From Candidatus Aminicenantes bacterium (lineage in GTDB: Bacteria > Acidobacteriota > Aminicenantia > Aminicenantales > Aminicenantaceae), in contig SOIV01000160.1 in the NCBI GenBank assembly GCA_004377005.1, positions 1 through 57,135 of the forward strand: 57,135 nucleotides of DNA, in the 5' to 3' direction. How positions within the stretch are numbered: the stretch's first letter is position 1; the number at the start of each line of letters is the position of its first letter. Below, in pieces: positions 8,945 through 50,277 of this stretch. The notes below the pieces were generated by a model, which did no database searches, was not told the origin of the DNA, and saw only the letters and a list, made by a program, of their open reading frames with translations. Both the position numbers and the translations under genes were made by a program.

Positions 8945-9021
8945 TATCGCTTCTCCGTGTATATTTTGCTTTGATTAGTATACTGTATAAAATGTTTGTA
9001 CTTATTTGTCAAAATCATTTT

Positions 9022-9279: not shown

Positions 9280-9291
9280 TTATAAAAGAAG

Positions 9292-9450
9292 AAAATGGGG
9301 ACAGGCTACTTTTTTCTCACAGCCAATTCACTCTTCCTTGCCTAAATTAATCGTCATGGCGGGCAACTTATAGAGTATATCAATATCAAGGTGTTGTTAG
9401 AAAATCATGGACTGACTTTCTAATATAAAAAAGTAGCCTGTCCCCTTTTT
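9292..9450. repeat. Inverted-repeat-bounded element of the 'AAAA(A/T)GGGGACAG' family
   Basis: GGGGACAGGCTACTTTTTT (9297-9315) is the perfect reverse complement of AAAAAAGTAGCCTGTCCCC (9427-9445). These arms enclose about 110 nt containing GTCATGGCGGGCAAC, which is related to a word in the 23811-24203 element. Confidence 0.75.
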
Positions 9451-9550
9451 ATTAACGTCGGTTTCATGAGTTGATTTTCATTGAAAAAAATTATAATATT
9501 CATTTTCCGTTTTTATTCATTCATATACTTTATAATAGGGAGGCTTAATC

Positions 9551-14738: not shown

Positions 14739-14870
14739 TGCAGGGGTTTGATTTATCTGATTTTTATTAATTGTAGGGGCTTGATTTATCTGCAGGAGCT
14801 TGATTCATCAAACATGGAAAAACAGGAAGTATCCTTTGTAGGGGCTTGATTTATCAAGCCCACCTTTTTT
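14739..14870 (+). repeat. Four degenerate tandem copies of the 'GTAGGGGCTTGATTTATC' word. The last copy forms a complete hairpin plus T-run, a likely sucD terminator.
   Basis: TGCAGGGGTTTGATTTATCTG, TGTAGGGGCTTGATTTATCTG, CAGGAGCTTGATTCATCAA and TGTAGGGGCTTGATTTATCAAGCCCACCTTTTTT. The palindrome GGGCTTGATTTATCAAGCCC lies at 14842-14861 and is followed by TTTTTT. Confidence 0.7.
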
Positions 14871-33194: not shown

Positions 33195-34835
33195 GTGGGG
33201 TCAGTCAACAAAAAAAAAATTTTAGGAGCTCCCGTAGGCAATTGTGTTCATGTCGCAGGCATCCTTAATTTTCTAAAATTAGCTGAACGCTGCGGCTATG
33301 AAACACTTTTCCTAGGTCCCGCCGTTTCTGTAGAAAAAATATCAGAAGCTATAAAACAGCACAATCCAAACCTTATCGCTATCAGTTATCGCTTAACTCC
33401 CGAAGTGCTTAAAAAATTATTGACTGCTTTAAAAAAAGAGGTCGAAAAAAACAGATGGCAGGATAAGACTTTTATATTTGGTGGAACACCGCCCACCGCC
33501 GAAGTCGCCCGTAAAAGCGGATTATTTGAAGCTACATTCGGGGGTCTCGAGCCTCGAGAAGACATAACCTCTTTTCTCAAAGGGAAAGTCGAAGAAGTAA
33601 AAAAAGATGAAATTCCTCCACAGAATCTCATCGACCGAATAGCTTTCAATGGTTCTTATCCTCTTCTCCGCCATCATTTCGGCCTGCCTACAGTCAAAGC
33701 GACTGTGGAGGGGGCCAGAGAAATTGCGCTCTCTGAAACAGTGGATGTCATTTCCATCGGACCTGACCAAAATGCCCAGGAGAGTTTTTTCCGTCCGGAT
33801 GAAATGAAAAAAGAGCAAGATGGCGCAGGAGGAGTTCCTTTGAGGAAACCTGAAGATCTTGAAGCCATTTATAAAGCAACACGCTGCGGCAACTATCCCC
33901 TGCTCCGTTGTTATTCCGGCACAAGAGACCTTATTAAATGGGCAGAGATGTCGCATAAAACCATAAACATTGCCTGGGGAGCTGTTCCTCTTTGCTGGTA
34001 CAATAAGCTTGATGGCCGCTCTGACCGAACTCCTGCAGATTCCATCGCAGAAAATCAGCAGGTAATGAAATGGTACGCTGAGCATAAAATCCCTCTCGAA
34101 GTTAATGAATCTCACCACTGGAGCCTGAGGGATGCTCATGACACAGTTGCAGTAACAGCGGCTTTTCTAGCAGCGTATAACGCAAAAAAAATGGGAATAA
34201 CTCATTATGTGGCCCAGTATATGTTCAACAATCCGGCTCAAACATCTCCTTTGATGGATTTAGCTAAGATGCTGGCAAAAATAGAGCTTATCGAATCTCT
34301 TCATGATGAAAATTTTACGAGTATTCGCCAGACGAGAACGGGTTTGGCTTGCCTTTCTCCCGATCCCGATGTTGCCAAAGGCCAGCTCTCCTCTTCCTGT
34401 TTGTTCCAGATGACCCTGGAACCAAAGATAGTCCATGTAGTCGGATTCTGCGAAGCAGACCATGCAGCAACTCCACCAGATATAATTGAAAGCGCCAAAA
34501 TCACGCTGGGCATCATAAAGAATTTCTCTTTGGGTGCTCCTCAAATTCTTGATGACCCCAGGATAAAAGAGAGAAAGGAGGAGCTTGTCGAGGAAACAAA
34601 ATATCTTCTCCAGGCATTTAAGAACCTCGCTGCTGATAAAGTCAAGGATCCCTGGACTGATCCTGAAACCCTTGCCCAGGCCATTCATAGAGGCCTTCTT
34701 GACGCCCCCCATCTTGCAGGTAACCCGTATGCCACCGGGAAGGTTCATACTCAAATCAGGGATGGAGCCTGTTATGCCGTTGATCCCCAATCAGGAAATC
34801 TTTTGAGTGAAAAGGAAAGAATCTCTCGAATTTAA
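33195..34835 (+). CDS. B12-binding-domain fusion protein, mutase-like (GlmS-like N-terminus plus a large, possibly GlmE-like C-terminal domain); function unknown
   Basis: 546 aa with a GTG start 1 nt after the upstream stop. Residues 8-125 align by eye with glutamate mutase S (KKILGAPVGNCVHVAG versus KTIVLGVIGSDCHAVG, and FIFGG versus LYVGG). The resemblance of the C-terminal ~400 aa to the E-subunit TIM barrel is only tentative. Confidence 0.5.
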   Translation: MGSVNKKKILGAPVGNCVHVAGILNFLKLAERCGYETLFLGPAVSVEKISEAIKQHNPNLIAISYRLTPEVLKKLLTALKKEVEKNRWQDKTFIFGGTPPTAEVARKSGLFEATFGGLEPREDITSFLKGKVEEVKKDEIPPQNLIDRIAFNGSYPLLRHHFGLPTVKATVEGAREIALSETVDVISIGPDQNAQESFFRPDEMKKEQDGAGGVPLRKPEDLEAIYKATRCGNYPLLRCYSGTRDLIKWAEMSHKTINIAWGAVPLCWYNKLDGRSDRTPADSIAENQQVMKWYAEHKIPLEVNESHHWSLRDAHDTVAVTAAFLAAYNAKKMGITHYVAQYMFNNPAQTSPLMDLAKMLAKIELIESLHDENFTSIRQTRTGLACLSPDPDVAKGQLSSSCLFQMTLEPKIVHVVGFCEADHAATPPDIIESAKITLGIIKNFSLGAPQILDDPRIKERKEELVEETKYLLQAFKNLAADKVKDPWTDPETLAQAIHRGLLDAPHLAGNPYATGKVHTQIRDGACYAVDPQSGNLLSEKERISRI

Positions 34836-36262
34836 TGAAAAATCCTCCATCCCTCGCATTTGAAGATCACTTTAACATTTCTCTGGGTGACCTCCAAAAA
34901 ATCTTGGATATTTCTCTTTCCCGTGGCGGCGATTTCTCGGAAATATACCTGGAGTATAAAATCTACAATTTTATCAACATGGAAGAAGATATCATCAAAG
35001 AAACAGCAGAGAGTATAAGTCTTGGGTTGGGCATAAGAGTTTTATCGGGCGAAAAAACAGGATACGGCTATACCAACGACCTCTCCTTTGCCAAAATCAA
35101 AAAAACTGCCCTTACAGCGGCCTCTATTGCCTCAAGTCGCGCCCTGAGGGAGGCTTCTCCCCTGAGTCCAGTCCAATTTCATCATAACTTTTATCCAGTC
35201 CTGGAGTCACCTCACAAGGAATCTCTTGAGAAAAAAATATCCTTTGTCAAAGAAACATATCATTCCGCCCAGAATTTCGATCGAAAAATAAAAAAAGTGA
35301 AGGTTTCCTTCCTGGATCACACTCAGTTCGTGACCATTCTCAATTCAGAAGGATTAAAGGTCTCCGATGTCCGTCCTCTTATTAAACTGGCCTGTCTGGC
35401 AATTGCTGAAAAAGAGGACAAAAGAGAGACAGGCTTCTCTGGAGGAGGAGGAAGAGTGGGCATGGAATATTTCTCCACCGATCTCACTCCTAAGGAAATA
35501 GGTCAAGATGCAGCAAAGGAAGCCTTGGAGCTTCTCGAAGCGGCCTTGCCGCCTGCCGGGGAGATGCCTGTAGTGCTTGCCCCTGGTCACAGCGGAGTTT
35601 TGGTTCATGAAGCAGTAGGACATCTGCTCGAAGCAGATTTTATCCGTAAGAAAACCTCAATTTTTTGGAATAAGATGGGAAAAAAAGTAGGCAGCAGCCA
35701 GGTTACGATCTACGATGACCCGACTATTCCCTATTTTCGAGGCTCTTATAATATAGACGATGAAGGCACAATCCCCAAAAAGACCCTTCTCATCGAAAGA
35801 GGAAAAATGGCAGGTCTTCTTCAAGACAGGCTTTCAGCCAAATTGATGCGAAGGCCTCTCACTGGTCACGGCCGAAGACAAGACTATTCATGCATTCCTA
35901 TTCCAAGGATGAGCAATACCTACATAGACAGAGGAAGGTACTCCCCGGATGAAATCATCAAGTCTGTGGAAAAGGGATTTTATGCCCACAAATTCCTGGG
36001 AGGTCAAGTGGAAGATTCAGGAAAGTTCACCTTTTCAGTCAGCTCAGGCTATCTTATAGAAAACGGAAAACTGACCGCACCTGTGAAGCAGGCTACTCTT
36101 ATAGGAACCAATATTGAGATCCTAAAAAATATTGCAATGATCGGCTCTGACCTTAAATTTGGTCTTCAAACAGGAACCTGCGGAAAAGAAGGCCAGGCGA
36201 TTCCGGTTATCGATGGCTGCCCCACGATAAAAATTTCCAGGATGACAGTGGGAGGACAATAG
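34835..36262 (+). CDS. tldD: TldD family metalloprotease
   Basis: 475 aa with an HExxxH motif (VHEAVGHLLE) and the conserved C-terminal PmbA_TldD fold ending ...MTVGG. TAATG overlap with the upstream gene. Confidence 0.9.
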   Translation: MKNPPSLAFEDHFNISLGDLQKILDISLSRGGDFSEIYLEYKIYNFINMEEDIIKETAESISLGLGIRVLSGEKTGYGYTNDLSFAKIKKTALTAASIASSRALREASPLSPVQFHHNFYPVLESPHKESLEKKISFVKETYHSAQNFDRKIKKVKVSFLDHTQFVTILNSEGLKVSDVRPLIKLACLAIAEKEDKRETGFSGGGGRVGMEYFSTDLTPKEIGQDAAKEALELLEAALPPAGEMPVVLAPGHSGVLVHEAVGHLLEADFIRKKTSIFWNKMGKKVGSSQVTIYDDPTIPYFRGSYNIDDEGTIPKKTLLIERGKMAGLLQDRLSAKLMRRPLTGHGRRQDYSCIPIPRMSNTYIDRGRYSPDEIIKSVEKGFYAHKFLGGQVEDSGKFTFSVSSGYLIENGKLTAPVKQATLIGTNIEILKNIAMIGSDLKFGLQTGTCGKEGQAIPVIDGCPTIKISRMTVGGQ

Positions 36263-37608
36263 TGGAAAAGGGAAAAAAGCCCATGAAGCTCAAAGAACTG
36301 GCAGAAAGCCTGGTGACTTTTGGAAAAGTCAACGGAGCGGATGAAGTTGAAATATCCATCTTGGACGGCTATGAATTCAGCGTCGATGTAAGATTGGGAA
36401 AAATAGAAAACCTGGTTGAGGCAGGTTCCAGGTCCTTGGGCTTGAGAGTCATCAAGGATAAAAAAACTGCCTTTGCCTCTTCTTCAGATTTATCCAAAGA
36501 GGCACTCGAGCATCTTGTGAAAAATGCCATAAAGCGGACGAAGTTAGCCAGCCCTGATGAATTCTCAGGACTCCCCGCTCTCTCAAAAAAAAGAGTTGAC
36601 ATCCCTTCCTTAAAGCTTTTTGACCCTGAAATCCCAAGCCTGGATTCAGAAAAGAAGATTGCTCTGGCTACAGAGACAGAAAAAATCGCTCTCGAGGATA
36701 AAAGAATCACAAACTCCCATGGATCAAGCTTTGAAACTACAGAAATAAGAATAATTTTTGCAAACTCGAACGGCTTCCTTGAGGAATACGAGCAAACATT
36801 TTGCGGCCTGAGTATTGGCCTCCTGGCTGGAGGAACAGACAATCAAGTTGAAGACTATTGGTCCTCCTCAAAGCTCCATTTCAAAGAATTAGATTCACCA
36901 GAAGAAGTCGCCAAAAAAGCAGTGGAGAGAACAGTGCGGCAAATTAAACCCAGGAAAATAAAGACACAAAAAGTTCCTGTTATCTTTGAACCTACGATGA
37001 CCTCCTGGCTTCTTGGTTTTCTTTTTGGATGTGTTTCTGGAGTGTCTATCTACAAGAAAACTTCCTTTTTGGTCGATAAGCTGGGAAAAAGGATTGGGAA
37101 TGAAAGAGTGACTGTTTATGACGACGGTCTTATGCCCGGAAGGCTGGGGACAAGACCTTTTGACGCCGAAGGTGTACCCAGCCAAAAAACTCTTGTTATG
37201 GATAAAGGAATTCTCAAAAACTACCTGTGCAACACTTACGCCGCCCGGAAACTGAAGCTCAAAGCAACAGGAAGCTCAAGCGGCACCAGTGTCAGTCCAA
37301 GTAATTTTTATCTTAAAGCCGGAAATACGCCTCCGGAAAAAATCGTCTCCTCCCTGGAAAAGGGCTTAATCCTTATCAGAACCATCGGGCATGGACTCAA
37401 TCCTGTAACCGGGGATATCTCCAGAGGAGCATTCGGCTTATGGGTTGAAAAAGGAGAAATTGTCTATCCGGTTTCAGAAATAACTATCTCCGGGAATCTC
37501 GGTGAAATCTTGAATAATATAGAAGTTGTTGGAAATGACCTTGACTTCCGGAGTCCCCTCGCCGGCCCGACAATAAAAATAAAGGAACTGACAGTAGCCG
37601 GCCAATAA
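36262..37608 (+). CDS. pmbA: PmbA/TldE family protein (TldD partner)
   Basis: 448 aa. The GTG start overlaps the tldD stop and has a GGGAGG RBS; an alternative ATG lies at 36283. PmbA_TldD fold without HExxxH, ending ...LTVAGQ. Confidence 0.88.
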   Translation: MEKGKKPMKLKELAESLVTFGKVNGADEVEISILDGYEFSVDVRLGKIENLVEAGSRSLGLRVIKDKKTAFASSSDLSKEALEHLVKNAIKRTKLASPDEFSGLPALSKKRVDIPSLKLFDPEIPSLDSEKKIALATETEKIALEDKRITNSHGSSFETTEIRIIFANSNGFLEEYEQTFCGLSIGLLAGGTDNQVEDYWSSSKLHFKELDSPEEVAKKAVERTVRQIKPRKIKTQKVPVIFEPTMTSWLLGFLFGCVSGVSIYKKTSFLVDKLGKRIGNERVTVYDDGLMPGRLGTRPFDAEGVPSQKTLVMDKGILKNYLCNTYAARKLKLKATGSSSGTSVSPSNFYLKAGNTPPEKIVSSLEKGLILIRTIGHGLNPVTGDISRGAFGLWVEKGEIVYPVSEITISGNLGEILNNIEVVGNDLDFRSPLAGPTIKIKELTVAGQ

Positions 37609-37718
37609 TGAAGCAAAAAATGATGCGAACCTCTAATTTTACTGCAATAGCGTTTTCGCTCTTAAGCGAGTGTGCATTTAGCCTTCGAAAACATCCCCTT
37701 TGGTTACGTTCTGTGGAA

Positions 37719-38861
37719 TCATAAACTTTTCAAAACATTTAACAGGCAATCAATATCTTCGAAGTTATTGAAGATATTTACAGATACTCTGATACCTTCT
37801 CCTCGAGCACCGACAAAGATTTTATTTTTAGCAAGCGTTTTAATGCATTGTTTATTTTTGTCTTCGAGTGTGAATGTCACTATGGCTGAACGCTCCTTTT
37901 TTCTGGCAACAGGTGAGGTAATCTTGATTTCCAGTTTTTCCAACCCTCTGATCAGGTAATCGGTCAATTCCATGACACGAGTCCGGATATTCTGAAATCC
38001 GATTGTTTTGAGGTAGTCCATCGCGGTTTGAAACGCCAATAAAGGCTGCAGGTTGTATGTTCCAATAATGTACCTCTCGGCAGTTTCATGAAGACGGAAG
38101 GGAGTGTTTTTAGCCGTGTGGATGAGACTCCCTTCTTCGGGGGCCACAGACATCCATCCTGCCCAGGGAGAAGGATATTTTTTCCGAAATAAGGAAGATG
38201 TGTAGAATAGAGTCCCGATATGGCCGGTGAATCCCCATTTGTGAACCGAAGCAGAGAGCACTTCGATGTTCATGGATCTGACATTAATCGGGAAAAAAGG
38301 AAAGGATTGAGTGGCATTGACGATAAAGAGAATTCCTCTTTTCTTCAGTTCTTCGCCAAGAGTTTTCAGGTCCTGGCGGAATCCCGTGGCGTACTGTACG
38401 TGTGAAGTAACAACTGCCAAGGTGTTCCGGTCTGACAGTTTCAGGATGTTATCAATGGGGTACCTTGCTTCCACGGGCTGGACATAGCGCATATCCAGGC
38501 CCTGGTATTCATAGCCGATCGTCGAGGCGGGAAACTCATCCTCCATCGAGACAATATTGAAGGGCTTCCGGATATGATTTTTAAAGGTCATGGCCAGAAG
38601 CGACATGACGGATGAGGTGTTTTGGACAAAGGTGACATCATCTCCTTTGGTGTGGATCATTCCCGCCAGTTCTGAACAAAGCTTACGGAATTTTTTTATA
38701 TCCTTCGTCCAGTGGGTATCTCCTTGTGTGTGGAGCTTGCGGTATTCTTTCAGAATGGCGTTTAAGACAGGAGTAGGAGAAGGAGACATCGCTGCGCTAT
38801 GAAAATAAGTCATGTTCTTGGTGATTGGAAAATCGCTCCGGATTTTTTTCCAGTCCGTCAT
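37719..38861 (-). CDS. Class V aminotransferase-fold PLP enzyme (cysteine desulfurase / selenocysteine lyase-like)
   Basis: 380 aa with a PLP-lysine motif (SASVHKW) and the fold-type I pattern. It lies inside the pmbA-bounded island. Confidence 0.78.
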   Translation of the reverse strand: MTDWKKIRSDFPITKNMTYFHSAAMSPSPTPVLNAILKEYRKLHTQGDTHWTKDIKKFRKLCSELAGMIHTKGDDVTFVQNTSSVMSLLAMTFKNHIRKPFNIVSMEDEFPASTIGYEYQGLDMRYVQPVEARYPIDNILKLSDRNTLAVVTSHVQYATGFRQDLKTLGEELKKRGILFIVNATQSFPFFPINVRSMNIEVLSASVHKWGFTGHIGTLFYTSSLFRKKYPSPWAGWMSVAPEEGSLIHTAKNTPFRLHETAERYIIGTYNLQPLLAFQTAMDYLKTIGFQNIRTRVMELTDYLIRGLEKLEIKITSPVARKKERSAIVTFTLEDKNKQCIKTLAKNKIFVGARGEGIRVSVNIFNNFEDIDCLLNVLKSL

Positions 38862-38907
38862 GTTTTTACCTCTGTTTTTTTGAGTTCAGCATAAAAAATA
38901 TAAGAAT

Positions 38908-39201
38908 TTGTTTTTTGTGTTTGCAATATTTTTCAACGTAATTACGGCAGGACAGCTAGCTCTAACTAAGTACCCAGAAACTGAATTAATTGGGCCATAT
39001 CCTTCATGGTGGTTTACTTTCAGCGGTCCTGAGTTGAAATCACACTATGCCATTCTGATTGAACAAGGAACTATGGAGACTTTTAGAGTTGTTCAATACT
39101 TAGACTATGGCCTGATGCTCTCTACAGGTTTATTCTTTTTTATTCTAGCTTTAATTATTGCAAGGCAACACAAAGAAGGTTCTTTCTTTAGAATATGTTA
39201 G
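38908..39201 (+). CDS. Hypothetical membrane protein or gene fragment (AT-rich orphan)
   Basis: 97-aa ORF with a non-ATG start, two hydrophobic segments and no recognisable family. It is embedded in a patchwork of mobile-element debris. Confidence 0.3.
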   Translation: MFFVFAIFFNVITAGQLALTKYPETELIGPYPSWWFTFSGPELKSHYAILIEQGTMETFRVVQYLDYGLMLSTGLFFFILALIIARQHKEGSFFRIC

Positions 39202-39519
39202 ACCGCCATTTGCGACGGTTTGAATTGTCTCTTCTAGTAACTGGCACACAACTTCCGTGCTTGATTTAAGGTCACCGGACAGCACTGGGCATTTATTTCT
39301 TCTTTTCTCTTTTCAATTTTCGTTTTTCCTTTGGATTAAGCTTGGCCTTTTTCTGATGTTCCCTTTTGCCTTTATCTTTTTTTCCCTTATCACCCATATC
39401 TATTTCTCCTTGCTTGAAAATGACTTACGCCGAACTGTTCGCTATCTAATCGGATGTTACCAATATTACCGGTTAAAATCAATATTGTTTTTGAAATTAT
39501 ATGGAAGTTCCAACGTCTT

Positions 39520-39729
39520 CCATGGAAAACGGCATCCAGTGAAAATGGGAGAACCAGTTGTCATACATTCAGACATTCATTTGCCACGCATCTTTTAGAA
39601 GACGGATATGATATCCGAACAGTTCAAGAACTCCTAGGGCATAAAGATGTTCGAACAACAATGATTTATACACATGTCTTGAATCGAGGAGTTCGAGGAG
39701 TATTGAGTCCTGCAGGCAAATTGAAATAA
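39520..39729 (+). pseudogene. C-terminal remnant of an integron-integrase-type tyrosine recombinase
   Basis: The translation [51 protein letters not shown] contains box II (HxxR...Y) and the IntI-like tail NRGxxGVxSP. About 250 N-terminal residues, including the first catalytic Arg, are absent. Confidence 0.7.
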
Positions 39730-39916
39730 ATTCACCTCTTAGAATCGCAGAAAGCAATATTGATTTTGACCGACAATATTAGTAACATCCGTTTAGACAG
39801 CGAGAAATGCTGCAAAACACAAACGGCAAAAAGTGGACGATTACGACAAAACAGATTATATTCAATAAGTTATCCCCTGCTTCGTTCAAACTGCATAACG
39901 CAATAGACTGCGCTAA

Positions 39917-40200
39917 ATGCCGTATTTGCACAAGCAAAATGGCTGTATAATATATGTTAGGCTTCCAGCATACCTAATCAGGGCAAAAACCTCTCCATAC
40001 CATACTCTGAACACCAGATCCGCGCAAACCCATTCTTCGGATTGCTGCAATCGAGGTACTTCTCAACCACATCTTGCACAATGGGAAAGAAGTATCCGTA
40101 TTCTATCCCATATCGATATTCATATTCAGCCACAAACTGCTCAAAGTAATGAAAAAGCACGCTTTCCCCCTCAAAGGCCGAACGGATAGGATCAGGAAGG
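39917..40200 (-). pseudogene. N-terminal remnant of an IS91-family (Y2) transposase
   Basis: The translation FEQFVAEYEYRYGIEYGYFFPIVQDVVEKYLDCSNPKNGFARIWCSEYGMERF matches the Zn-ribbon N-terminus typical of IS91-type transposases (...YLDCGxxxNGFARVxCxxCGHE...). The Cys ligands are degraded, there is a premature stop, and no catalytic domain follows. Confidence 0.6.
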
Positions 40201-40438
40201 TTTGACTGTCCGAAGGGATTTGTATCAGAAGGCAGAATTTTATATTATAAATTATATATAAAATTATGGAAGAAATTGCGTCTCTTTTCGTCTAAATATG
40301 TAAGTTGCTTAGAGTACAGCTCTACCTGTTCAAGAAGAACGCAGTGAAAAAAGAAGGCATCCAGATAGCTACTATAATAACCGAGTTGGTAAGAGAAAAC
40401 GTACCGCGAAAAATAATTTATCATGTATCGTTAGGTGA

Positions 40439-41734
40439 GTGATTATGCGAAAATTAACCATCATCATATTGATCGTATTCCTGGCTCTAGCTGTGAGCTG
40501 TGGAAAATCGGGCGACAGCGGCATAGACAAAGGGACGAAGCCGGCAGAAAAACAACAGGCTGAGAAAACTCCAGATAAGAAAGGCACTCTAGGCAGGCCT
40601 GGCCAAAAGCCTGGAGCCAAATCTCAGGATGGCAAAGAGATCGATGTCGATAAGCTTGATATTCCCGACCACATGAAAGAGGCCATAAAATCAGGGCGCA
40701 TCCCGAAGGACCAAATCCCGGAGATCCTTGCCCGATTTCAGGGCGGTGGAGGGCCGGCGGCCCCGGTGAGTGTGACGCCAGTCCAGCGCCAAAACCTGAA
40801 CTCCTACCTCGTCCTCAACGGCATCGTCGAGCCCGAAAAGAAAGTCGAGATTTACTCTCACCTTTCCGCCTATGTCAAGAAGATCGTGAAGGAAGAAGGA
40901 GATTACGTCAAAGAAAATGATGTCCTGGCCCAACTCGATGACACGGAAATCATAATTATCTACAACCAGGCAAAGATCCAACTGGACCAGGCCAAACTAA
41001 ACCTTGAGGAAGCAGAAAATAACTACATCCGCAGTCAGGAGCTTGTCAAGCGTTCGCTCGTTTCCGAACAGGATTTCCAGGCTACCGAAGCGCAGTTCAA
41101 GCAAAGCCAGTTAGAGTACCAGAACCGTATGGAGAATTTCAATAATCTCAAGCTCCAGCTGGACTGGACTAAAATTCGGGCGCTTTCCGAAGGCTATATC
41201 ACCGAGCGGCTCATCGAAGCCGGAGATCGCGTTAACTCCAACACGCAGGTGTATACGATCGAAGATTTCAATCCCTTGCTTATCCGCGTGTTCGTCCCCA
41301 CGTCTGATGCTATCAATCTCGCTCTTGGTATGTCCGCGGAAGTGACCACCGATGTTCTGAAGGGATTAGGGTTCGAAGGTAAGGTCAAGCTTATCAACCC
41401 TCGGATCGATGTCGAGACCGGAACAGTCAAAGTCACCGTCGAGATCTTCGACAATTCCCTCCGTCTGCAGCCGGGGATGTTTGTGAAAGTCCAGATAGCC
41501 ATCGGGATGAAAGAGAACGTCTTGGTTATCCCTCGGAAAGCCATCCTTTACAAGCAGAACAAGAGTTATGTCTTTGTCCTGAATCGGCGCCAAGTGTCCC
41601 AGCGCGAGGTCCTTCTCGGCCTTCTCGAGGAAGACCACGTAGAAGTGACAGAAGGGCTGAATGAAGGCGAAGTCATCGTAATAGTTGGAGTCGAAGGGCT
41701 CAAAGACGGCCAAAGAGTCGACGTGGTTCAATGA
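40439..41734 (+). CDS. RND efflux periplasmic adaptor (membrane fusion protein), probable lipoprotein
   Basis: 431 aa. Signal peptide ending LAVSCGK, a Lys/Pro/Gly-rich linker, then the HlyD/MFP pattern of barrel-sandwich, coiled-coil hairpin and beta-barrel. It overlaps the next gene by 4 nt. Confidence 0.88.
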   Translation: MIMRKLTIIILIVFLALAVSCGKSGDSGIDKGTKPAEKQQAEKTPDKKGTLGRPGQKPGAKSQDGKEIDVDKLDIPDHMKEAIKSGRIPKDQIPEILARFQGGGGPAAPVSVTPVQRQNLNSYLVLNGIVEPEKKVEIYSHLSAYVKKIVKEEGDYVKENDVLAQLDDTEIIIIYNQAKIQLDQAKLNLEEAENNYIRSQELVKRSLVSEQDFQATEAQFKQSQLEYQNRMENFNNLKLQLDWTKIRALSEGYITERLIEAGDRVNSNTQVYTIEDFNPLLIRVFVPTSDAINLALGMSAEVTTDVLKGLGFEGKVKLINPRIDVETGTVKVTVEIFDNSLRLQPGMFVKVQIAIGMKENVLVIPRKAILYKQNKSYVFVLNRRQVSQREVLLGLLEEDHVEVTEGLNEGEVIVIVGVEGLKDGQRVDVVQ

Positions 41735-44700
41735 AAATCGTTAAGTTTTCCATCAATCGTCCAGTAACCATCTTTATGTTCACAGTCGCCGCGATCATCT
41801 TTGGCTTTATCTCCTATACCAAACTAAACCTGAATTTACTGCCAAAGATTTCCTATCCCACTCTTACCATCCTGACAGAATACCCTGGAACCGCCCCTTC
41901 GGAAATCGAGAACATCATCTCCAAGCCGATTGAGGAGACCTGCGGAGTTGTTGACAATGTCGTGCGTATCTCTTCGGTCTCCCGTGCGGAGCTCTCCGAG
42001 ATCACGGTCGAGTTTGCCTGGCACACCAACATGGATTTCGCTACCCTGAAACTCAGAGAAAAGCTGGACCTGCTTCGCCTTCCCAGGGACGCAACTAAGC
42101 CGGTCATCCTCAGGTACGATCCCAACCAGGAACCCATCATGAGATTAGGTTTGACCGGCGATGCTGATCTGGCCCGCATCCGTTTTATAGCAGAGAGAGA
42201 AGTCAAACAGGCCTTGGAGAGTATCGAGGGGGTTGCAGCTTGCTCCATATCAGGCGGTCTGGAAGATGAAATCCACATCGACATCGACGAGCAAAAAATC
42301 AGCCTTCTCAATATCCCCATCACTACCGTGACCAATCGCCTTGCGCAGGAAAACGTGAACCTCTCCGCCGGGATCCTGAAACAAAAAGACAGCCAGTTTC
42401 TGGTTCGGACCGTCAATCAGTTCAAAACCGTGGAGGAAATTAAGGATATCATCATCGAAAAACGGGGCGATGTCCAGCTCACCCTGGGAAGCATTGCGGA
42501 TGTGTACCGTGGCCATAAAGAACGGAAAGTCATTTCTCGCATCAATGGTCGAGAATGTATCGAAGCTGCCATCTACAGGGCCGCGGATGCCAACACTGTC
42601 GCAGTAGCTAATGCTGTCACCGACAAGCTGAAGGTAGTTCAAGCAAATATCCTGAAGCCCAGGAATATGGATTATCTGATTATCACCAACCAGTCAAAAT
42701 TCATCAAAAACACCATCAAGAAAGTCAAGCAAACCGCCCTTATCGGGGGCGTACTGGCCATCCTTGTTTTACTTTACTTTTTGAAAAACTTCCGTAGCAC
42801 CCTGATCATCGGCGCTACTATACCCATTTCCGTCGTCATTACATTCTTTCTCATGTATTCCTCCAATATCTCCTTGAACATAATCTCGCTCGGAGGATTG
42901 GCACTCGGGATCGGGATGCTGGTTGACAACTCCATCGTTGTCTTGGAGTCTATCCAACGTTACAGGGAAAAGGGAACAGACTCGTACAAAGCCGCTTTGC
43001 AGGGAACATCCGAGGTAGCTGGAGCCGTAACTGCCTCCACTTTCACAACGGTAGCGGTATTTTTTCCGATTGTGTTCGTGGAGGGAATTGCGGGTCAGCT
43101 TTTTAAAGATATGGCCCTGACGGTGACTTACTCTCTGCTGGCTTCTTTAGCTGTGTCCTTGACTCTCGTTCCGATGCTCAATGCAACCCTGCGCCGTGAA
43201 AATTCTAAGGAGTGGCTGACCGGATGGCTTAAGGTGCTTTTTAAACCACTGGATAAGATTTACAGCCAATTTTATCTCTCTTATAAAAAAATCCAGGATT
43301 TCTCCTTTGGGCATAAAAAAATCATTTTCATTACTGTGATAGTGCTCTTTTTCACAGCCATCTTCATGACCCGCTTCATGGGCAAGGAATTGATCCCGGT
43401 CATTTCCCAGGGAGAATTTTTAATCAATGTCGAGTTTCAGCCTGGAACCGCCCTCAAAGAAAACACCGCTATAATCACAGATATATCTGAAGTCCTAAAA
43501 AAACACAAAGAAATAGAGAGCATCTACGAGCTCATAGGGAAAGGCTCCAGGGGCGGCATCTCCTTTCAAGAAGAACGGGAAAACCTCTCCGAGTTCACTC
43601 TCCGCTTGAAACCGGGAATCCTGGGAAAAAAGGAAGATCGAATCATGGATCTGGTCAGAGCCGACCTGGAAAAGTTTCCAACAACCAAAGTCAAAGTCTA
43701 CAAACCCCGCTTGTTCTCTTTCAAAGCTCCTCTCGAAGTAGTAGTCCTGGGAAACGACCTCGAGATGATCAAACAGGTCTCAGACGAACTCCTGGAGAAA
43801 ATCCGGGGTGTGGACGGAATCACCGACCTGAAATCCAGCATGGAAGAAGGCTATCCAGAAATCCAGATCATTTTCAACCGGGCCCTGCTTGCTTCTCAAA
43901 ACATGACCATAAACTCGGTAGGAGTCCAGATCAGGAATAAAATCGAGGGAGATGTCGCAACACGCTTTATCGAAAGCGACCGTGAGGTAGACATCCGGGT
44001 TCGCCTCTCGGAGGGTTTCCGAGACCGCGTGGATAAGATCGGCCGGATCAATATCCGCAACGGTTTGGGCATGATGGTGCCGTTGAAAGCGCTGGCAGAG
44101 ATCCGAATTAAAGAAGGTCCGGCAGAAATACGCCGTATCCTCCAGCAAAAATCTGCGGTCATCACCGGGAACATCTCCGGAATTTCCCTGGATACCGCCA
44201 AGGAAAAAGTCATGGCAGCAGCCGCGTCCATAGACTGTGGTCCCGAATGCTCGATCTACCTGGCCGGACAGAGCATGGAGCAGGACGTGGCCTTTTCCTC
44301 CATGATTTTCGCTATTTTCCTAGCCGTGTTTCTGGTCTATCTGGTCATGGCCTCCCAGTTCGAATCCTTTATAAAGCCGTTTATCATCATGTTCACCATC
44401 CCATTCGGTATTATCGGGGTCGTTATCGTCGGACTCGTGTTCAGCATGTCAATCAACGTGATCGTACTCATCGGCCTGATCATTCTTTCCGGTATCATCG
44501 TGAACAACGCTATCGTGCTGGTCGATTACATCGGAAAGCTCGAGAAACAAGGAATGTCTAAGATGGAAGCCATCAAAACCGCTGCGCAGGTAAGGTGGCG
44601 GCCGATCATCATGACCTCGATTACGACAGTGCTGGCACTTGTGCCCATGGCACTGGATTTTAATGAGGGATTCGAGATCCGTATCCCCCTGGCCCTGACA

Positions 44701-44877
44701 TTGATCGGAGGTTTGGTCTTCGGCACCTTTCTAACCCTGATCTTTATCCCCTTGGTCTACAGCATGGTGGTCAGGGAGACTAAGGTTACCGAAGAGAAGC
44801 AAAGCCGCTTCTTGGGTTTTCCAAAGAGCTTCAAAATGACTCCGCCTCTGGACAAGGCTAAAGCGAAAAAACCATGA
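41731..44877 (+). CDS. RND (AcrB/HAE1-type) efflux transporter, first of two tandem pumps
   Basis: 1048 aa with 12-TM AcrB architecture (MKIVKFSINRPV..., two large periplasmic loops, GLALGIGMLVDNSIVVLE). 4-nt overlap with the downstream pump. Confidence 0.93.
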   Translation: MKIVKFSINRPVTIFMFTVAAIIFGFISYTKLNLNLLPKISYPTLTILTEYPGTAPSEIENIISKPIEETCGVVDNVVRISSVSRAELSEITVEFAWHTNMDFATLKLREKLDLLRLPRDATKPVILRYDPNQEPIMRLGLTGDADLARIRFIAEREVKQALESIEGVAACSISGGLEDEIHIDIDEQKISLLNIPITTVTNRLAQENVNLSAGILKQKDSQFLVRTVNQFKTVEEIKDIIIEKRGDVQLTLGSIADVYRGHKERKVISRINGRECIEAAIYRAADANTVAVANAVTDKLKVVQANILKPRNMDYLIITNQSKFIKNTIKKVKQTALIGGVLAILVLLYFLKNFRSTLIIGATIPISVVITFFLMYSSNISLNIISLGGLALGIGMLVDNSIVVLESIQRYREKGTDSYKAALQGTSEVAGAVTASTFTTVAVFFPIVFVEGIAGQLFKDMALTVTYSLLASLAVSLTLVPMLNATLRRENSKEWLTGWLKVLFKPLDKIYSQFYLSYKKIQDFSFGHKKIIFITVIVLFFTAIFMTRFMGKELIPVISQGEFLINVEFQPGTALKENTAIITDISEVLKKHKEIESIYELIGKGSRGGISFQEERENLSEFTLRLKPGILGKKEDRIMDLVRADLEKFPTTKVKVYKPRLFSFKAPLEVVVLGNDLEMIKQVSDELLEKIRGVDGITDLKSSMEEGYPEIQIIFNRALLASQNMTINSVGVQIRNKIEGDVATRFIESDREVDIRVRLSEGFRDRVDKIGRINIRNGLGMMVPLKALAEIRIKEGPAEIRRILQQKSAVITGNISGISLDTAKEKVMAAAASIDCGPECSIYLAGQSMEQDVAFSSMIFAIFLAVFLVYLVMASQFESFIKPFIIMFTIPFGIIGVVIVGLVFSMSINVIVLIGLIILSGIIVNNAIVLVDYIGKLEKQGMSKMEAIKTAAQVRWRPIIMTSITTVLALVPMALDFNEGFEIRIPLALTLIGGLVFGTFLTLIFIPLVYSMVVRETKVTEEKQSRFLGFPKSFKMTPPLDKAKAKKP

Positions 44878-47800
44878 ATTTACCTGAATTTTCCATAAAA
44901 AAACCTGTTTCCATTATCGTAGTCATGCTTATTTTCATCACCATTGGGGTGATATCCATACTCAAACTTCCGCTGGAAATGATGCCCGACATCTCCTTCC
45001 CAGGACTCATGGTACAAATTCCATATCCTTCCTCCTCTCCTGAGGAGGTGGAGCGCACCATTACCCGGCCAATGGAAGATATCCTGGCCACTATCAACAA
45101 TCTCGAGAATCTCAGATCTACCTCGTCCTCATCATCCTCCCGTATCCATCTTCAGTTCAAGGGAGACACAAACATGGACCTGGCTACCATGCAGATCAGG
45201 GACAAAATCGACCAAATCCGGAACGACCTCCCAGATGACATCGAAAATATTCGAATCCGCCGCTTTTCGATGAGCGACCGGCCTGTGATCCAATTCAACC
45301 TGGCTTTGCCCGGCGACCTGGAAAACATGTATTATTGGTCCGAAAATTACATCATGCAGCAGTTGGAACGGATAGAGGGCGTGGCCAATGTGGAAACCCG
45401 GGGAATCCGCAATAAATTGTTGACCATCTATCTTAAACCCGAGGTTTTCTATTCTTCATCTATCCGCATCATGGATCTAACTGACACCATCCGTAACAAC
45501 AACATCAACATATCAGCCGGTTATGTGGAAGAAGGCCCCCTGCGCTTAGTGACACGCATTCCGGGGGAACTGAAGATCCTTGAGGATGTGAAAAACCTTC
45601 CTGTTAGCGACAGAGGCCTTACTATCGCCGACGTTGCTCGCGTGACCTACGATTACCCTCCCAAAGAGGAATATAACCGCCTGGACAGGAAAGAGACTGT
45701 TCGCTTCCAGATCTACCGTGCTTCCAACGCCAATATCGTGGATGTGTGCAACAATGTCAAAGCGACTATGGCACGGATCAAAGAGACAGAACCTGAGCTT
45801 AAAGATATGACCGTAATATTCTACCGCGATCAATCGCGGGATATTTTAAAGAGTCTCAAAGATCTGAGCTTTTCCGGAATCGTCGGCGGCCTTCTAGCTG
45901 TATTCGTCCTGCTCTTCTTCCTGAGAAAATTGCGTTCCACCATTATCATCGCCATGGCCATCCCCATGGCTATTGTATTTACTTTCAGCTTTATGTACCT
46001 TTACCGCGACATTTTCCGCGCTGATATTTCCATCAACATCATATCCCTCAGCGGACTTATGATGGCGGTGGGAATGCTGGTGGATAACAGCGTAGTGGTC
46101 CTGGAGAACATATTCCGGCTGCGTCAGGAGAAGAATTATTCCCCGATAAAAGCTTCCATGACTGGAGCCAGTGAGGTGGTCATGGCTGTCACCGCTTCCA
46201 CTTTGACAACCTTGGTCGTTTTTATCTCATTGGGTTTCATGGCGCGGTCGGGATTCGGGCGCTTCATGAAGGACTTTGCTCTGACTATCTCCCTGGCCCT
46301 GATTGCCTCTCTGATCGTTTCCCTGTCGTTCATTCCGCTGGCAACAAGCCGACTCCTGGCCGGTAAAACCAAGGAGAAAGCTCGTTGGCTGGTTAAATTA
46401 ACAACGATTTACGAGCGTATCATCAGCTTTACTATCAAAAACTGGAGGACCAAGCTTCTTGTTGTTGGTCTGGCCGTCGGGATCTTTTTCGTCTCCTTCC
46501 AGATTTTCAAAAACATCGAGCAGGAGTTCATGCCGAGCAGTGACCAGCGGGAAATAGATATCTCGGTCTATATGCCGCGCAGTTTCACACTGAACGAGAT
46601 GAAATCCCTTTTCTTTAATATCGAGGATATCCTCCTTTCTCGGAAGGACGAACTCGCCATCAAATATCTGGAAACCGAATTCGGCGTGCGACGTATGCGG
46701 CAAGGACGGTTCCGCGGGTCAATAGAACTGGAATTGGAAGAAAAAGGAGCGTCAGTAACCGAAATCAAAGAAAAGCTTAAGAACCTGCTTCCCAGGCGGG
46801 CCGGCATCACCTACGAGTACGGGCAGCGTTTTGGCCGTCACGGATTCCACCGCGGAATTTCTGTGGAATTGATCGGTCTGGATTACACAAAACTAACCGA
46901 GTTGGCCCCGATGGTAATCGAAAAGCTGCGGACGGTCGAAAATGTGGAGGATATTACCAGTGACTTGGAGGGTGGAGACACGCAGCTTTTGGTCGAAGTG
47001 GACCGTGCCAAGGCAGAAAGTTCTGGTGTGAGCAGCCGTATGGTGGCCCAGACCATTTCCTCCTCTATTTCTGAAAGGGCTATCGGAAAATTCAAAACAG
47101 AAAACCGAGAGATCGACATCATCTTGAAAATCCAGGGAGAGGATGGATTTACCGAAGAAGACCTCCGGAATATCAGCCTGCGGACCCGCTCCAAACGGAT
47201 TCCCCTCTCAGCAATATCGACTATTTCTTACCGTTTAGGATCGACTTCCATCCAAAAAGAAAATAAAAAATCCAAATTGAACATACGCATCAATACAAAA
47301 ACACAGGGCATGATGGCTATCTCCAACGACGTACGCCAGGTCTTGAGTACCATCCAATTCCCCGAAGGCTATACGTGGAGCCTGGGATCCGGGTGGAGGC
47401 GTTTCCGTGAATCCCGAGGAGAATCCAATATGGCCATCATCCTCGCCCTTATCTTCATCTATATCATTATGGCCTCTCTATTCGAGTCCTTCGTACATCC
47501 TTTTACGATTCTTCTAACTGTTCCCCTGGCATTGTTCGGAGTGGCTGTATTTTTCACCCTCACGAATATCACCTTGAACACGACCTCCTATTTAGGGCTT
47601 TTGGTTCTGTTCGGGATTGTGGTGAATAACGGGATCATCCTCATCGATCACATCCGGACACTTCGCAAATCCGGGATGGAAAAGAACGAGTCTATCGTCC
47701 AGGGAGGCAAAGACAGAATGCGGCCGATCATCATGACTGCCATCACAACTATTTTCGGGGTGCTGCCGTTGGCGCTCCCCGTCCTTCTGCCCCAGTTCTT

Positions 47801-47975
47801 TCAGGCTGCAGGACGGAGAGCACAAATGTGGGCACCTATATCCGTGGCCATTATCGGCGGGCTGACCACCTCAACTTTCTTTACGTTGATCTTCCTGCCT
47901 ACTTTTTACTCCATCTCGGATACAGTGGGGACTAAGGTCAAATCCCTCCTTGGGTTCAAAAGCACCAAAATCTGA
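44874..47975 (+). CDS. RND (AcrB/HAE1-type) efflux transporter, second tandem pump
   Basis: 1033 aa with the same architecture (MNLPEFSIKKPV..., GLMMAVGMLVDNSVVVLE). Confidence 0.93.
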   Translation: MNLPEFSIKKPVSIIVVMLIFITIGVISILKLPLEMMPDISFPGLMVQIPYPSSSPEEVERTITRPMEDILATINNLENLRSTSSSSSSRIHLQFKGDTNMDLATMQIRDKIDQIRNDLPDDIENIRIRRFSMSDRPVIQFNLALPGDLENMYYWSENYIMQQLERIEGVANVETRGIRNKLLTIYLKPEVFYSSSIRIMDLTDTIRNNNINISAGYVEEGPLRLVTRIPGELKILEDVKNLPVSDRGLTIADVARVTYDYPPKEEYNRLDRKETVRFQIYRASNANIVDVCNNVKATMARIKETEPELKDMTVIFYRDQSRDILKSLKDLSFSGIVGGLLAVFVLLFFLRKLRSTIIIAMAIPMAIVFTFSFMYLYRDIFRADISINIISLSGLMMAVGMLVDNSVVVLENIFRLRQEKNYSPIKASMTGASEVVMAVTASTLTTLVVFISLGFMARSGFGRFMKDFALTISLALIASLIVSLSFIPLATSRLLAGKTKEKARWLVKLTTIYERIISFTIKNWRTKLLVVGLAVGIFFVSFQIFKNIEQEFMPSSDQREIDISVYMPRSFTLNEMKSLFFNIEDILLSRKDELAIKYLETEFGVRRMRQGRFRGSIELELEEKGASVTEIKEKLKNLLPRRAGITYEYGQRFGRHGFHRGISVELIGLDYTKLTELAPMVIEKLRTVENVEDITSDLEGGDTQLLVEVDRAKAESSGVSSRMVAQTISSSISERAIGKFKTENREIDIILKIQGEDGFTEEDLRNISLRTRSKRIPLSAISTISYRLGSTSIQKENKKSKLNIRINTKTQGMMAISNDVRQVLSTIQFPEGYTWSLGSGWRRFRESRGESNMAIILALIFIYIIMASLFESFVHPFTILLTVPLALFGVAVFFTLTNITLNTTSYLGLLVLFGIVVNNGIILIDHIRTLRKSGMEKNESIVQGGKDRMRPIIMTAITTIFGVLPLALPVLLPQFFQAAGRRAQMWAPISVAIIGGLTTSTFFTLIFLPTFYSISDTVGTKVKSLLGFKSTKI

Positions 47976-47983
47976 TTATTTTC

Positions 47984-48180
47984 AGGGACATCCCCACAGA
48001 ATCATTCAGCTTATGGATTGAAGAAGGAGAAATTGTCTATCCTGTTTTAAGAATAATCATCTCCGGGAATCTGGGGGAATCCTGAATGATAGGGAAATAG
48101 TTAGAAATAATCTCGACTTTTGGACTGCCCTCTCCGGTCAGATAATTAAGACCAGCGAAATGACCGTAGCCGGGCAGTAA
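47984..48180 (+). pseudogene. Displaced, frameshifted duplicate of the last 198 nt of pmbA
   Basis: It aligns by hand to 37411-37608 with about 46 differences, including a 1-nt deletion. There is a shared 19-nt identical core AAGGAGAAATTGTCTATCC (37451-37469 / 48024-48042). Correcting the deletion gives ...GNLGE(I)LNDREIVRNNLDF...MTVAGQ*, ending at a TAA in the same position as pmbA. Confidence 0.85.
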
Positions 48181-48207
48181 GAATGTAATCTATTATTTTT
48201 TTCTTTT

Positions 48208-48354
48208 TTATTTTTTCTTAGTCAAATAAGAAATAATAACAATTACAACTCCCAAACCCATCAATACCCAAGCAAGGATGTCCATGGATGCGGATTGGGT
48301 AAGTATTCTTACGAGAAAGCCGCCGATCAGTAAAACCAGGCCAAAAATACGCAT
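48208..48354 (-). CDS. Small (48 aa) two-TM membrane protein, hypothetical
   Basis: Below the 60-aa ORF-track cutoff. ATG at 48354 is preceded by AGGAGGAGGAG with a 5-nt spacer. Translation: MRIFGLVLLIGGFLVRILTQSASMDILAWVLMGLGVVIVIISYLTKKK. Confidence 0.45.
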   Translation of the reverse strand: MRIFGLVLLIGGFLVRILTQSASMDILAWVLMGLGVVIVIISYLTKKK

Positions 48355-48419
48355 TTCTTCTCCTCCTCCTTACCTCTTTATCCCTTAATACCCCCCCGGT
48401 ATAATAATCAATTCTGTAT

Positions 48420-48439
48420 GGGCTTGATTTATCAAGCCC
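48420..48439. repeat. Second complete copy of the GGGCTTGATTTATCAAGCCC palindrome
   Basis: Identical 20-nt palindrome, with the same flank (...CACCT), as at 14842-14861. Confidence 0.8.
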
Positions 48440-48518
48440 ACCTGTATTAAATCTAAGAAAGCATATCATTAATTCATCCTCACTTTTTAAGGATGATGTA
48501 AGCACCATGGGCAATTAG

Positions 48519-49094
48519 TCAAAAAACATTAAAATGAATGATATCCTCTAATTTTCTCTTGGGGACATGAAGACATTCCTGCTTGTCTTTCCAATATTTT
48601 AAGGAGCCCTCTATATCCTCCACTACAGGTTTCTCATCAGGATATCCCAAAGCCAACACAGAGTCAATTTTATAATTCATGGGAATTTTTAGCATTTCCT
48701 GGACTTTATCTCTTTCCACAGATAGGAGCCAACAGCTCCCGATTCCTTCCTCCCAAACAGTAAGGATCATGTTTTCAACTGCTGCTCCCACATCCCTTTC
48801 ATACCCTTTATCTCTCACCTGCAAATTGACCAGGACGACAATGTAAGCGACGGGTTCATGCCCCTGTTTGGGATTACCTTCTGGGGCAATATATCCTGCC
48901 CATTTCAAACAGGGAAAGAACTGCTTTCTTAGCTCGGCTTCATCGACAACGATAAACTCAAGAGGTTGAAGATTAGATGCTGAAGGAGCTAACCTTGCAG
49001 CGCTGACAAGTCTTTCTAGGATTTCCCTTGAAACAGGTTCAGGCTTGAACTGACGTATCGACCTTCGTGAAATAATCAGCTCGTATAAGCTCAT
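48519..49094 (-). CDS. Nitroreductase family protein
   Basis: 191 aa with N-terminal RRSIRQF and the APSASNLQP block typical of FMN nitroreductases. Confidence 0.85.
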   Translation of the reverse strand: MSLYELIISRRSIRQFKPEPVSREILERLVSAARLAPSASNLQPLEFIVVDEAELRKQFFPCLKWAGYIAPEGNPKQGHEPVAYIVVLVNLQVRDKGYERDVGAAVENMILTVWEEGIGSCWLLSVERDKVQEMLKIPMNYKIDSVLALGYPDEKPVVEDIEGSLKYWKDKQECLHVPKRKLEDIIHFNVF

Positions 49095-49269
49095 CTTTTT
49101 CTTTTTATCTCACAGGATTTTTAAAGTTCTGCTTATTTTTTTACGGATATTAATAAAATACATTCAAATTGTAAAGGAAAATAAAATTGAAATCTCCTCC
49201 AGTATAATAAAGTGCTATCACTTATTTAGTCGTAGTTATCCCTTAGATTTTGAGCTTTACTGAAAAAAA

Positions 49270-50277
49270 TCAGCCCTGGGCTAGAATTGATTTTAATTTT
49301 TTTGCATACTCGCGGCTTGCTCTATCAGGGGTGATGAACTCAATCTGATCAGGCTTGCTTATCCCCAAGCCTAACTCGACTGCTCTTTTAATTTGCTCTT
49401 GTTCAAAGATTTTGCGTTCCATTATGGCTTTGTTCGAGCCCAACTCTTTTAAAATAGCCACTCCTGCTGCGTCTACAGCAATACGATCCCTTCCTCCTAT
49501 GAAAACGTTGGCTTCTTTTCTGGTTCCTCTTGAAGGGCCTCCATCAACAAAAGCCTCTATTCCGTCAAGAACAATAAATTGAGGCTTATAGCCGAGATTT
49601 ATCTCAGCTATCATTTTCCTCATGGCGTTATCCCTTTCACCATGAAGCTCTCTCATCAGCTTCTTGGGTGTTAATCCTACCGCTAATTTTATTGACAAAG
49701 TAAAGACACCTCCGTACTGATGTGTCTTCAGACAGCAGGTAGAAACAACATATTCAGACTCAACAGCTGGGCGGGCTACATAAAATCCCTCTTTCCAGTG
49801 ATTTCCAGGCGGATTAAAGTGAACCCAATCCTTTTCTTCCAGTTCTTCGAAATTTATAATCTTGAAGTTTAATTCTTGGGCCAGGTCGAAAATCCCCTTA
49901 TCTTCTAAAACACTTTTTGTTGAGGGTGGGCCGCTTCTTTCGCCGATTGTAATCTCCGAAGCTCCCCTCTCTTGGAGCTCCTTAATCAACTGGCTCAAAG
50001 TATCGTTATGAGTTGAACCAGGTGTCGGATCAGCCGTATTGAAATTAGGTTTCAGCATAACTTTTTTACCGTCTACAGAGGCAAAATCTATAAGTTCTAA
50101 AATTTTCTGAACTCCTTCCTTCCTATCTTTGGTTTTAAAAAGTGCGATTTTAGCTTTCTTGCTGGTTTCTTTTGCCATCAGAGGTTTAAATCTTAATGCA
50201 GGCAAGCTTGCCAAGCCTATGACAGATCCTTTGATAAATTCGCGGCGATTTAAAGTCAATATTTTGCTTTTTCTCAT
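49270..50277 (-). CDS. DUF362 domain protein with a Tat-like signal
   Basis: 335 aa with N-terminal RREFIKGSVIGLASLP. DUF362 core pattern (VMLKPNFNTADP...ITIGERSG). Confidence 0.7.
   Translation of the reverse strand: MRKSKILTLNRREFIKGSVIGLASLPALRFKPLMAKETSKKAKIALFKTKDRKEGVQKILELIDFASVDGKKVMLKPNFNTADPTPGSTHNDTLSQLIKELQERGASEITIGERSGPPSTKSVLEDKGIFDLAQELNFKIINFEELEEKDWVHFNPPGNHWKEGFYVARPAVESEYVVSTCCLKTHQYGGVFTLSIKLAVGLTPKKLMRELHGERDNAMRKMIAEINLGYKPQFIVLDGIEAFVDGGPSRGTRKEANVFIGGRDRIAVDAAGVAILKELGSNKAIMERKIFEQEQIKRAVELGLGISKPDQIEFITPDRASREYAKKLKSILAQG

Follow-up and report, generated by a model that had tools for sequence, protein, structure and literature searches.

How does a housekeeping gene come to have an intact 3' end and, on the far side of an efflux operon, a second and decayed copy of that end? 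The question is raised by pmbA of an uncultured Candidatus Aminicenantes bacterium (assembly GCA_004377005.1, contig SOIV01000160.1), of which a stretch of 57,135 nt, hereafter the window, was analysed. An initial annotation of the window took the locus for an integrative island, left by a site-specific element that carried its own version of the gene end. Comparison with related loci bears out the duplication and the stranding of the native end, but not the mobile island. We give a probability of about one half to the reading that the locus is a fixed scar of gene-end ('C-terminal') displacement, produced by homology-facilitated illegitimate recombination with DNA from a close relative.

The duplicated end of pmbA and its native context

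The pmbA gene (positions 36262–37608, plus strand) encodes a TldD/PmbA metalloprotease of 448 residues and is intact, with matches to Pfam PF01523, PF19290 and PF19289 and to the NCBIfam PmbA model NF008268 (E = 2.7e-94). It is directly preceded by tldD (34835–36262). Downstream follow a class-V aminotransferase gene on the minus strand, about 1.5 kb of debris, the genes of a membrane-fusion protein (MFP) and two RND permeases, and the second copy of the gene end. To the right of that copy, a 48-codon membrane gene, a nitroreductase gene and a DUF362 gene all lie on the minus strand. We call the functional last 198 nt of pmbA the proximal copy, P (37411–37608, plus strand), and the displaced native end the distal copy, D (47984–48180, plus strand).

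P and D are identical in 152 of 198 alignment columns (76.8%); the rest are 45 mismatches and a single 1-nt gap, and blastn gives E = 1e-37. The global alignment score of 104 lies far above the scores of 300 shuffles (−42 ± 7, maximum −23), and the hand alignment of the initial annotation, which counted about 46 differences including a frameshifting 1-nt deletion, agrees with ours. TAA terminates both copies. D is a pseudogene fragment, frameshifted and with stop codons in every frame, in-frame stops included; excision today would leave pmbA with this frameshifted end. Full-length pmbA homology to the left of 47984, which would have pointed to a tandem duplication, is absent: blastn with the whole gene returned only the last 197 nt, and the stop codon of the second permease gene (RND2), at 47975, lies just left of the start of D.

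The original state of the locus is preserved in relatives. Our comparison set comprised 47 Aminicenantes pmbA loci (denoted, like the other loci compared, by L numbers), from a scan that took one genome per species. In about 30 of the 47, a nitroreductase gene on the opposite strand follows pmbA after 2–200 nt, and in more than 25 related species pmbA runs straight into the 48-codon membrane gene and the nitroreductase gene. The nearest such empty site, L090 (GCA_030615525.1; PmbA identity 86%), has the order pmbA, 18 nt, 48-residue gene, nitroreductase gene. In the window, the same 48-residue membrane-protein gene (48208–48354, minus strand) and the nitroreductase-family gene (48519–49094, minus strand; PF00881), a synteny anchor in about 35 loci, lie beyond D, and the downstream flank of D together with the 48-residue gene aligns with the flank of intact pmbA in L006, L010, L012 and L014. 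Since the flank of D is the native pmbA flank of the empty sites, D occupies the original position of the gene end, and the inserted material is therefore 37609–47983 plus P. The comparison supports an insertion of DNA into the 3' end of an ancestral pmbA, in which a second copy of the last 198 nt keeps the gene whole. The earlier proposal that the native end was stranded at the far junction while the gene was regenerated at the other is thus upheld, and the empty sites that it called for exist.

P and D also share a perfect 19-nt run, AAGGAGAAATTGTCTATCC, at 37451–37469 and 48024–48042, as first noted. It is their sole long identical run; by our own estimate, such a run is expected about 0.3 times per 198-nt alignment at 77% identity. 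The run encodes part of WVEKGEIVYP, the best-conserved stretch of the PmbA protein, and WVEKGEIV is among the conserved patterns picked by the search tool for PmbA. With up to three mismatches the 19-mer is found in 20 of the 47 pmbA loci, empty sites among them. The supposed att 'core' thus appears to be conserved coding sequence; as the most conserved coding stretch of pmbA, it needs no recombination to explain it.

Age of the insertion and origin of the replacement end

The RND2-D junction, and D with shared derived substitutions, occur in the window and in L004, L091, L093, L101, L102 and L081, so that several species-level lineages carry identical junctions. L005 has lost the operon and retains D with the shared derived changes and with a left boundary that agrees to within about 20 nt. 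Short contigs matched by look-ups of the nitroreductase and aminotransferase proteins confirm the junctions; an exact look-up of the window PmbA protein gave no match. By tldD plus pmbA distance L004 is basal in the window clade, and its operon lies beside D, which makes the operon ancestral to the clade. Between the window and L004 the operon is 87.4% identical over 9 kb and the core 87.6%; this equality indicates vertical inheritance since that split.

D had by then begun to decay. The ancestral consensus sequences of P and D differ at 39 of 179 comparable sites. Where they differ at codon positions 1 and 2, P agrees with L090 at 20 sites and D at 2 (20 changes on D, 2 on P), whereas position 3 is symmetric, 7 against 6. 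The excess of changes on D at positions 1 and 2 indicates that its pseudogene decay was under way long before the clade diversified. Judged from these alignments, the insertion appears to be ancient and fixed, an evolutionary scar rather than a working mobile island: its junctions are shared between species-level lineages, and its operon has diverged in step with the core.

If an element had carried its own version of the gene end, P might be expected to stand out from the rest of the gene. It does not. The p-distance between the window and L090 is 0.14 in the last 198 nt and 0.08–0.20 in the other thirteen 198-nt bins of tldD-pmbA, and no discontinuity over the last 198 nt is seen against L006 or L012 either. 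Third-position distances are 16/57 between P and D, 14/63 between P and L090 and 14/59 between D and L090, against 25–42 of about 64 from P or D to more distant lineages. P is not detectably foreign, and the replacement end probably came from the same or a very close lineage at about the time of the L090 split.

How the gene end may have been displaced

A second, independent event of the same kind has occurred elsewhere in the phylum. In L009, whose PmbA is 75% identical to that of the window, a 3.8-kb insert (5574–9451) with C69 and M28 peptidase genes is followed by a 99-nt duplicate of the pmbA end, which lies in native context and whose reading frame is still open. It shares 78% identity with the P copy of L009 (distance 0.23, against at least 0.34 to all other lineages), and at third positions the two copies differ at 10 of 32 sites, against 16–22 of 32 to other lineages. 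The breakpoint lies 99 nt before the pmbA stop, not 198 nt as in the window clade, and the duplicate does not include the 19-nt core. Other loci have inserts with no detectable duplicate: an ABC efflux system with further genes in L008, an insert in L013, and an S8 peptidase gene in L042 and L044. No pmbA-end duplicate was found in 16 proteobacterial pmbA loci. With about ten different cargoes, among them efflux systems, peptidases and receptor genes, the pmbA/nitroreductase junction is a general insertion hot spot in Aminicenantes. Insertions inside pmbA survive only when a replacement end arrives too.

These observations fit gene-end displacement. The window has an intact gene, foreign DNA and an orphan 3' fragment in its original context, and across the phylum the breakpoints vary between events, some of which left no orphan. 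In the ancestral state, pmbA would have converged directly on the 48-codon membrane gene and the nitroreductase gene. At about the split of the window clade from its nearest empty-site relative, DNA from a closely related Aminicenantes bacterium may have entered, carrying a pmbA end followed by the MFP-RND-RND operon. One end of this DNA would have paired by homology within tldD/pmbA. At the other, about 10 nt past the RND2 stop, an illegitimate joint would have been made with the resident pmbA, near nt 1150 of that gene. The end brought in (37411–37608) would have left pmbA intact, and the resident last 198 nt would have been pushed 8 kb downstream (47984–48180), there to decay neutrally. Single-crossover integration of a circular molecule with the same DNA would give the same product by another route. 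Later, the spacer between pmbA and the operon would have become an insertion hot spot, where the window acquired the aminotransferase gene along with the remnants of the recombinase and of IS91 (37621–40200).

Orphaned 3' gene ends in arrays of type VI secretion system (T6SS) effectors and at rhs loci have been attributed to homology-facilitated illegitimate recombination (PMC5361080, which cites PMC2935791, PMC122324 and PMC122325). In C-terminal displacement at rhs, contact-dependent inhibition (CDI) and T6SS effector-immunity loci (PMC5361080; Jackson et al. 2009, PMC2935791), an incoming 3' part with its cargo pairs with the resident gene and displaces the resident 3' end downstream. As there, the orphan at pmbA has kept its former surroundings, separate events have separate breakpoints, and an integrase plays no part. 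Unlike those loci, pmbA encodes a housekeeping protease rather than a polymorphic toxin, the incoming end is the same sequence and not a new variant, the cargo is an efflux operon, and the locus has a single orphan in place of an array; the mechanism, too, is here an inferred one. The locus is explained without new biology or a new mechanism, as a known kind of scar in a new gene and a new phylum. It provides a natural example, from an uncultured phylum, of a housekeeping gene that survives insertion into its own coding end: a substitute end comes in together with the cargo, and the former end stays on as a fossil that can be dated.

Several observations weigh against this account. The homology between P and D extends to the stop codon, give or take a few nucleotides, and no further, as it would if a gene-end mimic had been borne by an element. 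No microhomology is readable at the RND2-D junction, which has decayed, and none of the genomes sampled shows the expected donor arrangement, in which the operon would follow pmbA and a duplicate would be lacking. L005 and the window have matching left boundaries of D although the operon is missing from L005, which random deletion explains poorly. Finally, P, D and the L090 allele form a trichotomy over only 198 nt, with outgroups near saturation, which leaves room for a moderately diverged donor.

A site-specific origin is a possible but doubtful alternative to gene-end displacement. Here a tyrosine recombinase would have acted on a core inside pmbA, with a mimic of the pmbA 3' end in attP, and the integrase would have been lost later. 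Such an element would account for an insert bounded by direct repeats, a regenerated gene, the existence of empty sites and the end of homology at the stop codon, and an integron-integrase (IntI)-like remnant does lie inside the insert. Integrases that target the ends of protein genes and restore them are known, for instance the dusA integrases (PMC4482086). Islands that tyrosine recombinases integrate into the ends of tRNA or protein genes share with our locus gene-end direct repeats, an intact gene and empty sites. They differ in that our locus lacks an integrase and a defined common core and shows no sign of excision; its repeats are 23% diverged, the insertion is fixed in several species-level lineages, and the second event used another breakpoint.

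The recombinase remnant comprises the C-terminal 56 residues of an integron-integrase-like tyrosine recombinase, about 18% of the full gene (39550–39717, plus strand; TIGR02249 positions 258–313 of 315, E = 2.7e-30), and the open reading frame (ORF) at 39454–39729 matches PF00589 with E = 4.9e-18. An IS91-family transposase may be represented by an N-terminal zinc-finger fragment (39978–40160, minus strand), a weak match below the curated cut-off (PF14319, E = 0.005). The initial annotation was right about the recombinase and, more weakly, about IS91, but not in linking them to the insertion: both lie in a sub-segment (37621–40200) missing from L004, L091, L093 and L101, the simple and basal form of the insert, and are thus later additions. 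The Pfam lists of about ten arrangement variants contain no integrase, and tblastn with a full-length IntI-like protein over the pmbA loci returned the window fragment and a 19-residue piece in L003 and nothing else. A site-specific element is further disfavoured by the coding nature of the 19-nt run, the L009 breakpoint that excludes it, the lineage-native P, and the occurrence of the operon at other loci without a pmbA-like flank. The initial annotation knew of no att site in pmbA; among the ten top literature matches listed, no publication names pmbA. The locus carries a caution: the combination of a direct repeat, an enclosed piece of a recombinase gene and a shift in G+C can look like an integrative island where no active one exists.

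In an in-situ duplicative insertion, the operon, on linear or circular DNA with or without a short pmbA segment, would have entered by a repair or replication event, or by a single homologous crossover of a circle, that copied the recipient's own last 198 nt, so that P and D were at first the same. The distances suit this idea: at third positions P and D (16/57) resemble each other as much as each resembles the nearest empty-site allele, and more than either resembles any other lineage; the two stems carry balanced numbers of synonymous changes (6 against 7); and L009 shows a like pattern (10/32 between its copies against 16–22/32). We nevertheless consider it unlikely. Only by coincidence would a target duplication finish precisely at the stop codon, and the post-stop flank of P is unrelated to the native flank. 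Target duplications of 99–198 nt are also not known to be produced by bacterial insertion machinery.

The cargo itself suggests a further alternative. The efflux operon (40439–47975, plus strand; Pfam and NCBIfam matches) consists of the MFP gene (40439–41734; PF16576, TIGR01730) and the permease genes RND1 (41731–44877) and RND2 (44874–47975), all on the plus strand, and is accompanied in all contexts by a conserved leader or promoter region (40201–40438, plus strand). The two permeases match PF00873 over positions 1–1020 of 1021 (E = 3e-232 and 5e-207); with a periplasmic adaptor and full-length ACR_tran permeases, the operon has the components of a tripartite efflux system of the RND (HAE1-type) class, and no outer-membrane factor gene lies in the island. 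The order MFP-RND-RND, with one adaptor and two permeases, is that of MdtABC/MuxABC-type operons, and MdtA, MdtB and MdtC are the best NCBIfam equivalog-type matches. All scores, however, fall far below the equivalog cut-offs, and, unlike those systems, the operon has no outer-membrane factor gene.

The operon is richer in G+C than its surroundings, as first noted: 0.465–0.50 per kb against about 0.40–0.45 in the flanks. The difference is sharper at third codon positions (GC3), where the three efflux genes have 0.61 and the 32 genes outside the island 0.41 ± 0.03 (maximum 0.455). The contrast stands, but not as a sign of import. RND2 homologues of 74–86% identity occur throughout Aminicenantes, and the leader-MFP-RND-RND unit (window 40201–47985) lies at other loci in L096 (5330–13104), which is from the same metagenome-assembled genome (MAG) as the empty-site locus L014, and in L097 (4811–12493), with a GC3 of 0.58–0.67 at these two. 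Across the three genomic locations operon GC3 is 0.56–0.67, against 0.23–0.51 in core genes there. Because G+C is high in the operon of every Aminicenantes genome examined, it is not evidence of recent import; codon-usage constraint and transfer within the phylum fit the composition equally well. The unit is 81% identical at the nucleotide level between lineages whose TldD and PmbA proteins are just 72–73% identical. Differences at four-fold degenerate sites are 0.29 in the operon against 0.40 in pmbA within the clade, and 0.45 against 0.63–0.66 in core genes between distant lineages.

The unit might accordingly be mobile among Aminicenantes without a recognisable mobility gene, with the pmbA 3' end as a preferred landing site reached by an undescribed mechanism that duplicates gene ends. 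We regard this as quite improbable. It is left open because the operon occurs at three loci in three lineages, because its GC3 is uniformly 0.56–0.67 in hosts at 0.23–0.51, because its four-fold differences are below those of the core, and because two independent pmbA-end duplications occurred in the phylum. Neither flanking repeats nor a target duplication surround the operon in L096 or L097. A decayed pmbA-like segment in its 3' flank there, as a remnant attP, was considered in view of a few short colinear matches and rejected: in local alignments of the L096 and L097 flanks with the ancestral P end, 209 of 500 and 62 of 500 dinucleotide shuffles reached the observed score. The operon tail TTATTTTCAG is conserved at these other loci, and similarity to pmbA beyond it is not significant.

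A chimeric contig joining the pmbA ends of two strains, a thought prompted by an uncultured lineage in which a related MAG, HyVt-373, has pmbA split over two contigs (L035 and L045), can be dismissed as an assembly or binning artefact, because independent assemblies from different projects (L004, L081, L091, L093, L101 and L102) share the RND2-D junction and the P end. In HyVt-373, the closest public MAG, the two contigs overlap at residues 168–212 of pmbA, which points either to heterogeneity among strains or to a break in the assembly within the gene.

The accretion zone and minor features

Between pmbA and the operon leader lies a hypervariable spacer in which DNA has accreted. Its simplest form, in L004, L091 and L093, is a variable spacer of just 85–230 nt before the conserved leader. 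At the same spot lie two small ORFs in L101–L103; genes for a histidine kinase, a response regulator and a TonB receptor in L099 and L100, joined in L035 by an M28 peptidase gene, thrB and thrC; GWxTD, TPR and outer-membrane genes in L003; and an outer-membrane-like gene in L005. A stretch of about 35 nt after the pmbA stop (37609–37645; consensus TGAAGCAAAAAANNGGNGAAAATCACCGCAACCTA) is common to L003, L004, L099 and L101, after which unrelated cargo follows; the window shares its first 12 nt (37609–37620) and departs after 37620.

The secondary accretion zone of the window (37621–40200) contains the class-V aminotransferase or cysteine-desulfurase-like gene (37719–38861, minus strand), an ORF of unknown function (38908–39201), a conserved module with a Lys-rich 34-residue ORF (39237–39491), and inverted repeats (39439–39491 and 39751–39803) around the recombinase fragment. 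The repeats, which delimit 39439–39803, are 53 nt long and 87% complementary. In L003 (20646–20789), the inner segment stands in reverse orientation beside the same left arm, as inversion between the arms predicts. The module of about 200 nt, whose 34-residue ORF lies on the minus strand (39293–39397), recurs in L003 (20492–20698) and L035 (10684–10844), there downstream of a TonB-receptor gene, with 95–98% identity, above that of the flanking DNA. The module could represent either a conserved gene of small size or a repeat involved in rearrangement.

Of an integron, the window holds only the last 56 IntI-like residues; an Rfam scan, in which attC sites were not specifically modelled, was empty in 36000–50000, and Rfam and tRNA scans of the region gave no relevant RNA gene. 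The best 120 homologues of the recombinase fragment are all short (66–119 residues), which looked odd at first and is read as an artefact: the two examined on long contigs prove to be full-length genes with frameshifts, from long-read assemblies prone to error, and many of the rest lie on very short contigs. One full-length, frameshifted relative, in L088 (600–4225), adjoins toxin-antitoxin-like DUF433/DUF5615 pairs, and this region of an unrelated metagenome contig resembles a chromosomal integron.

The window contains two identical copies of a 23-nt palindromic element, GGGCTTGATTTATCAAGCCCACC, at 14842–14864 and at 48420–48442; by chance, none would be expected. Its copy number between the 48-residue gene and the nitroreductase gene differs among relatives, with more copies in L004 and L005, and it resembles repeats of the repetitive extragenic palindromic (REP) type.

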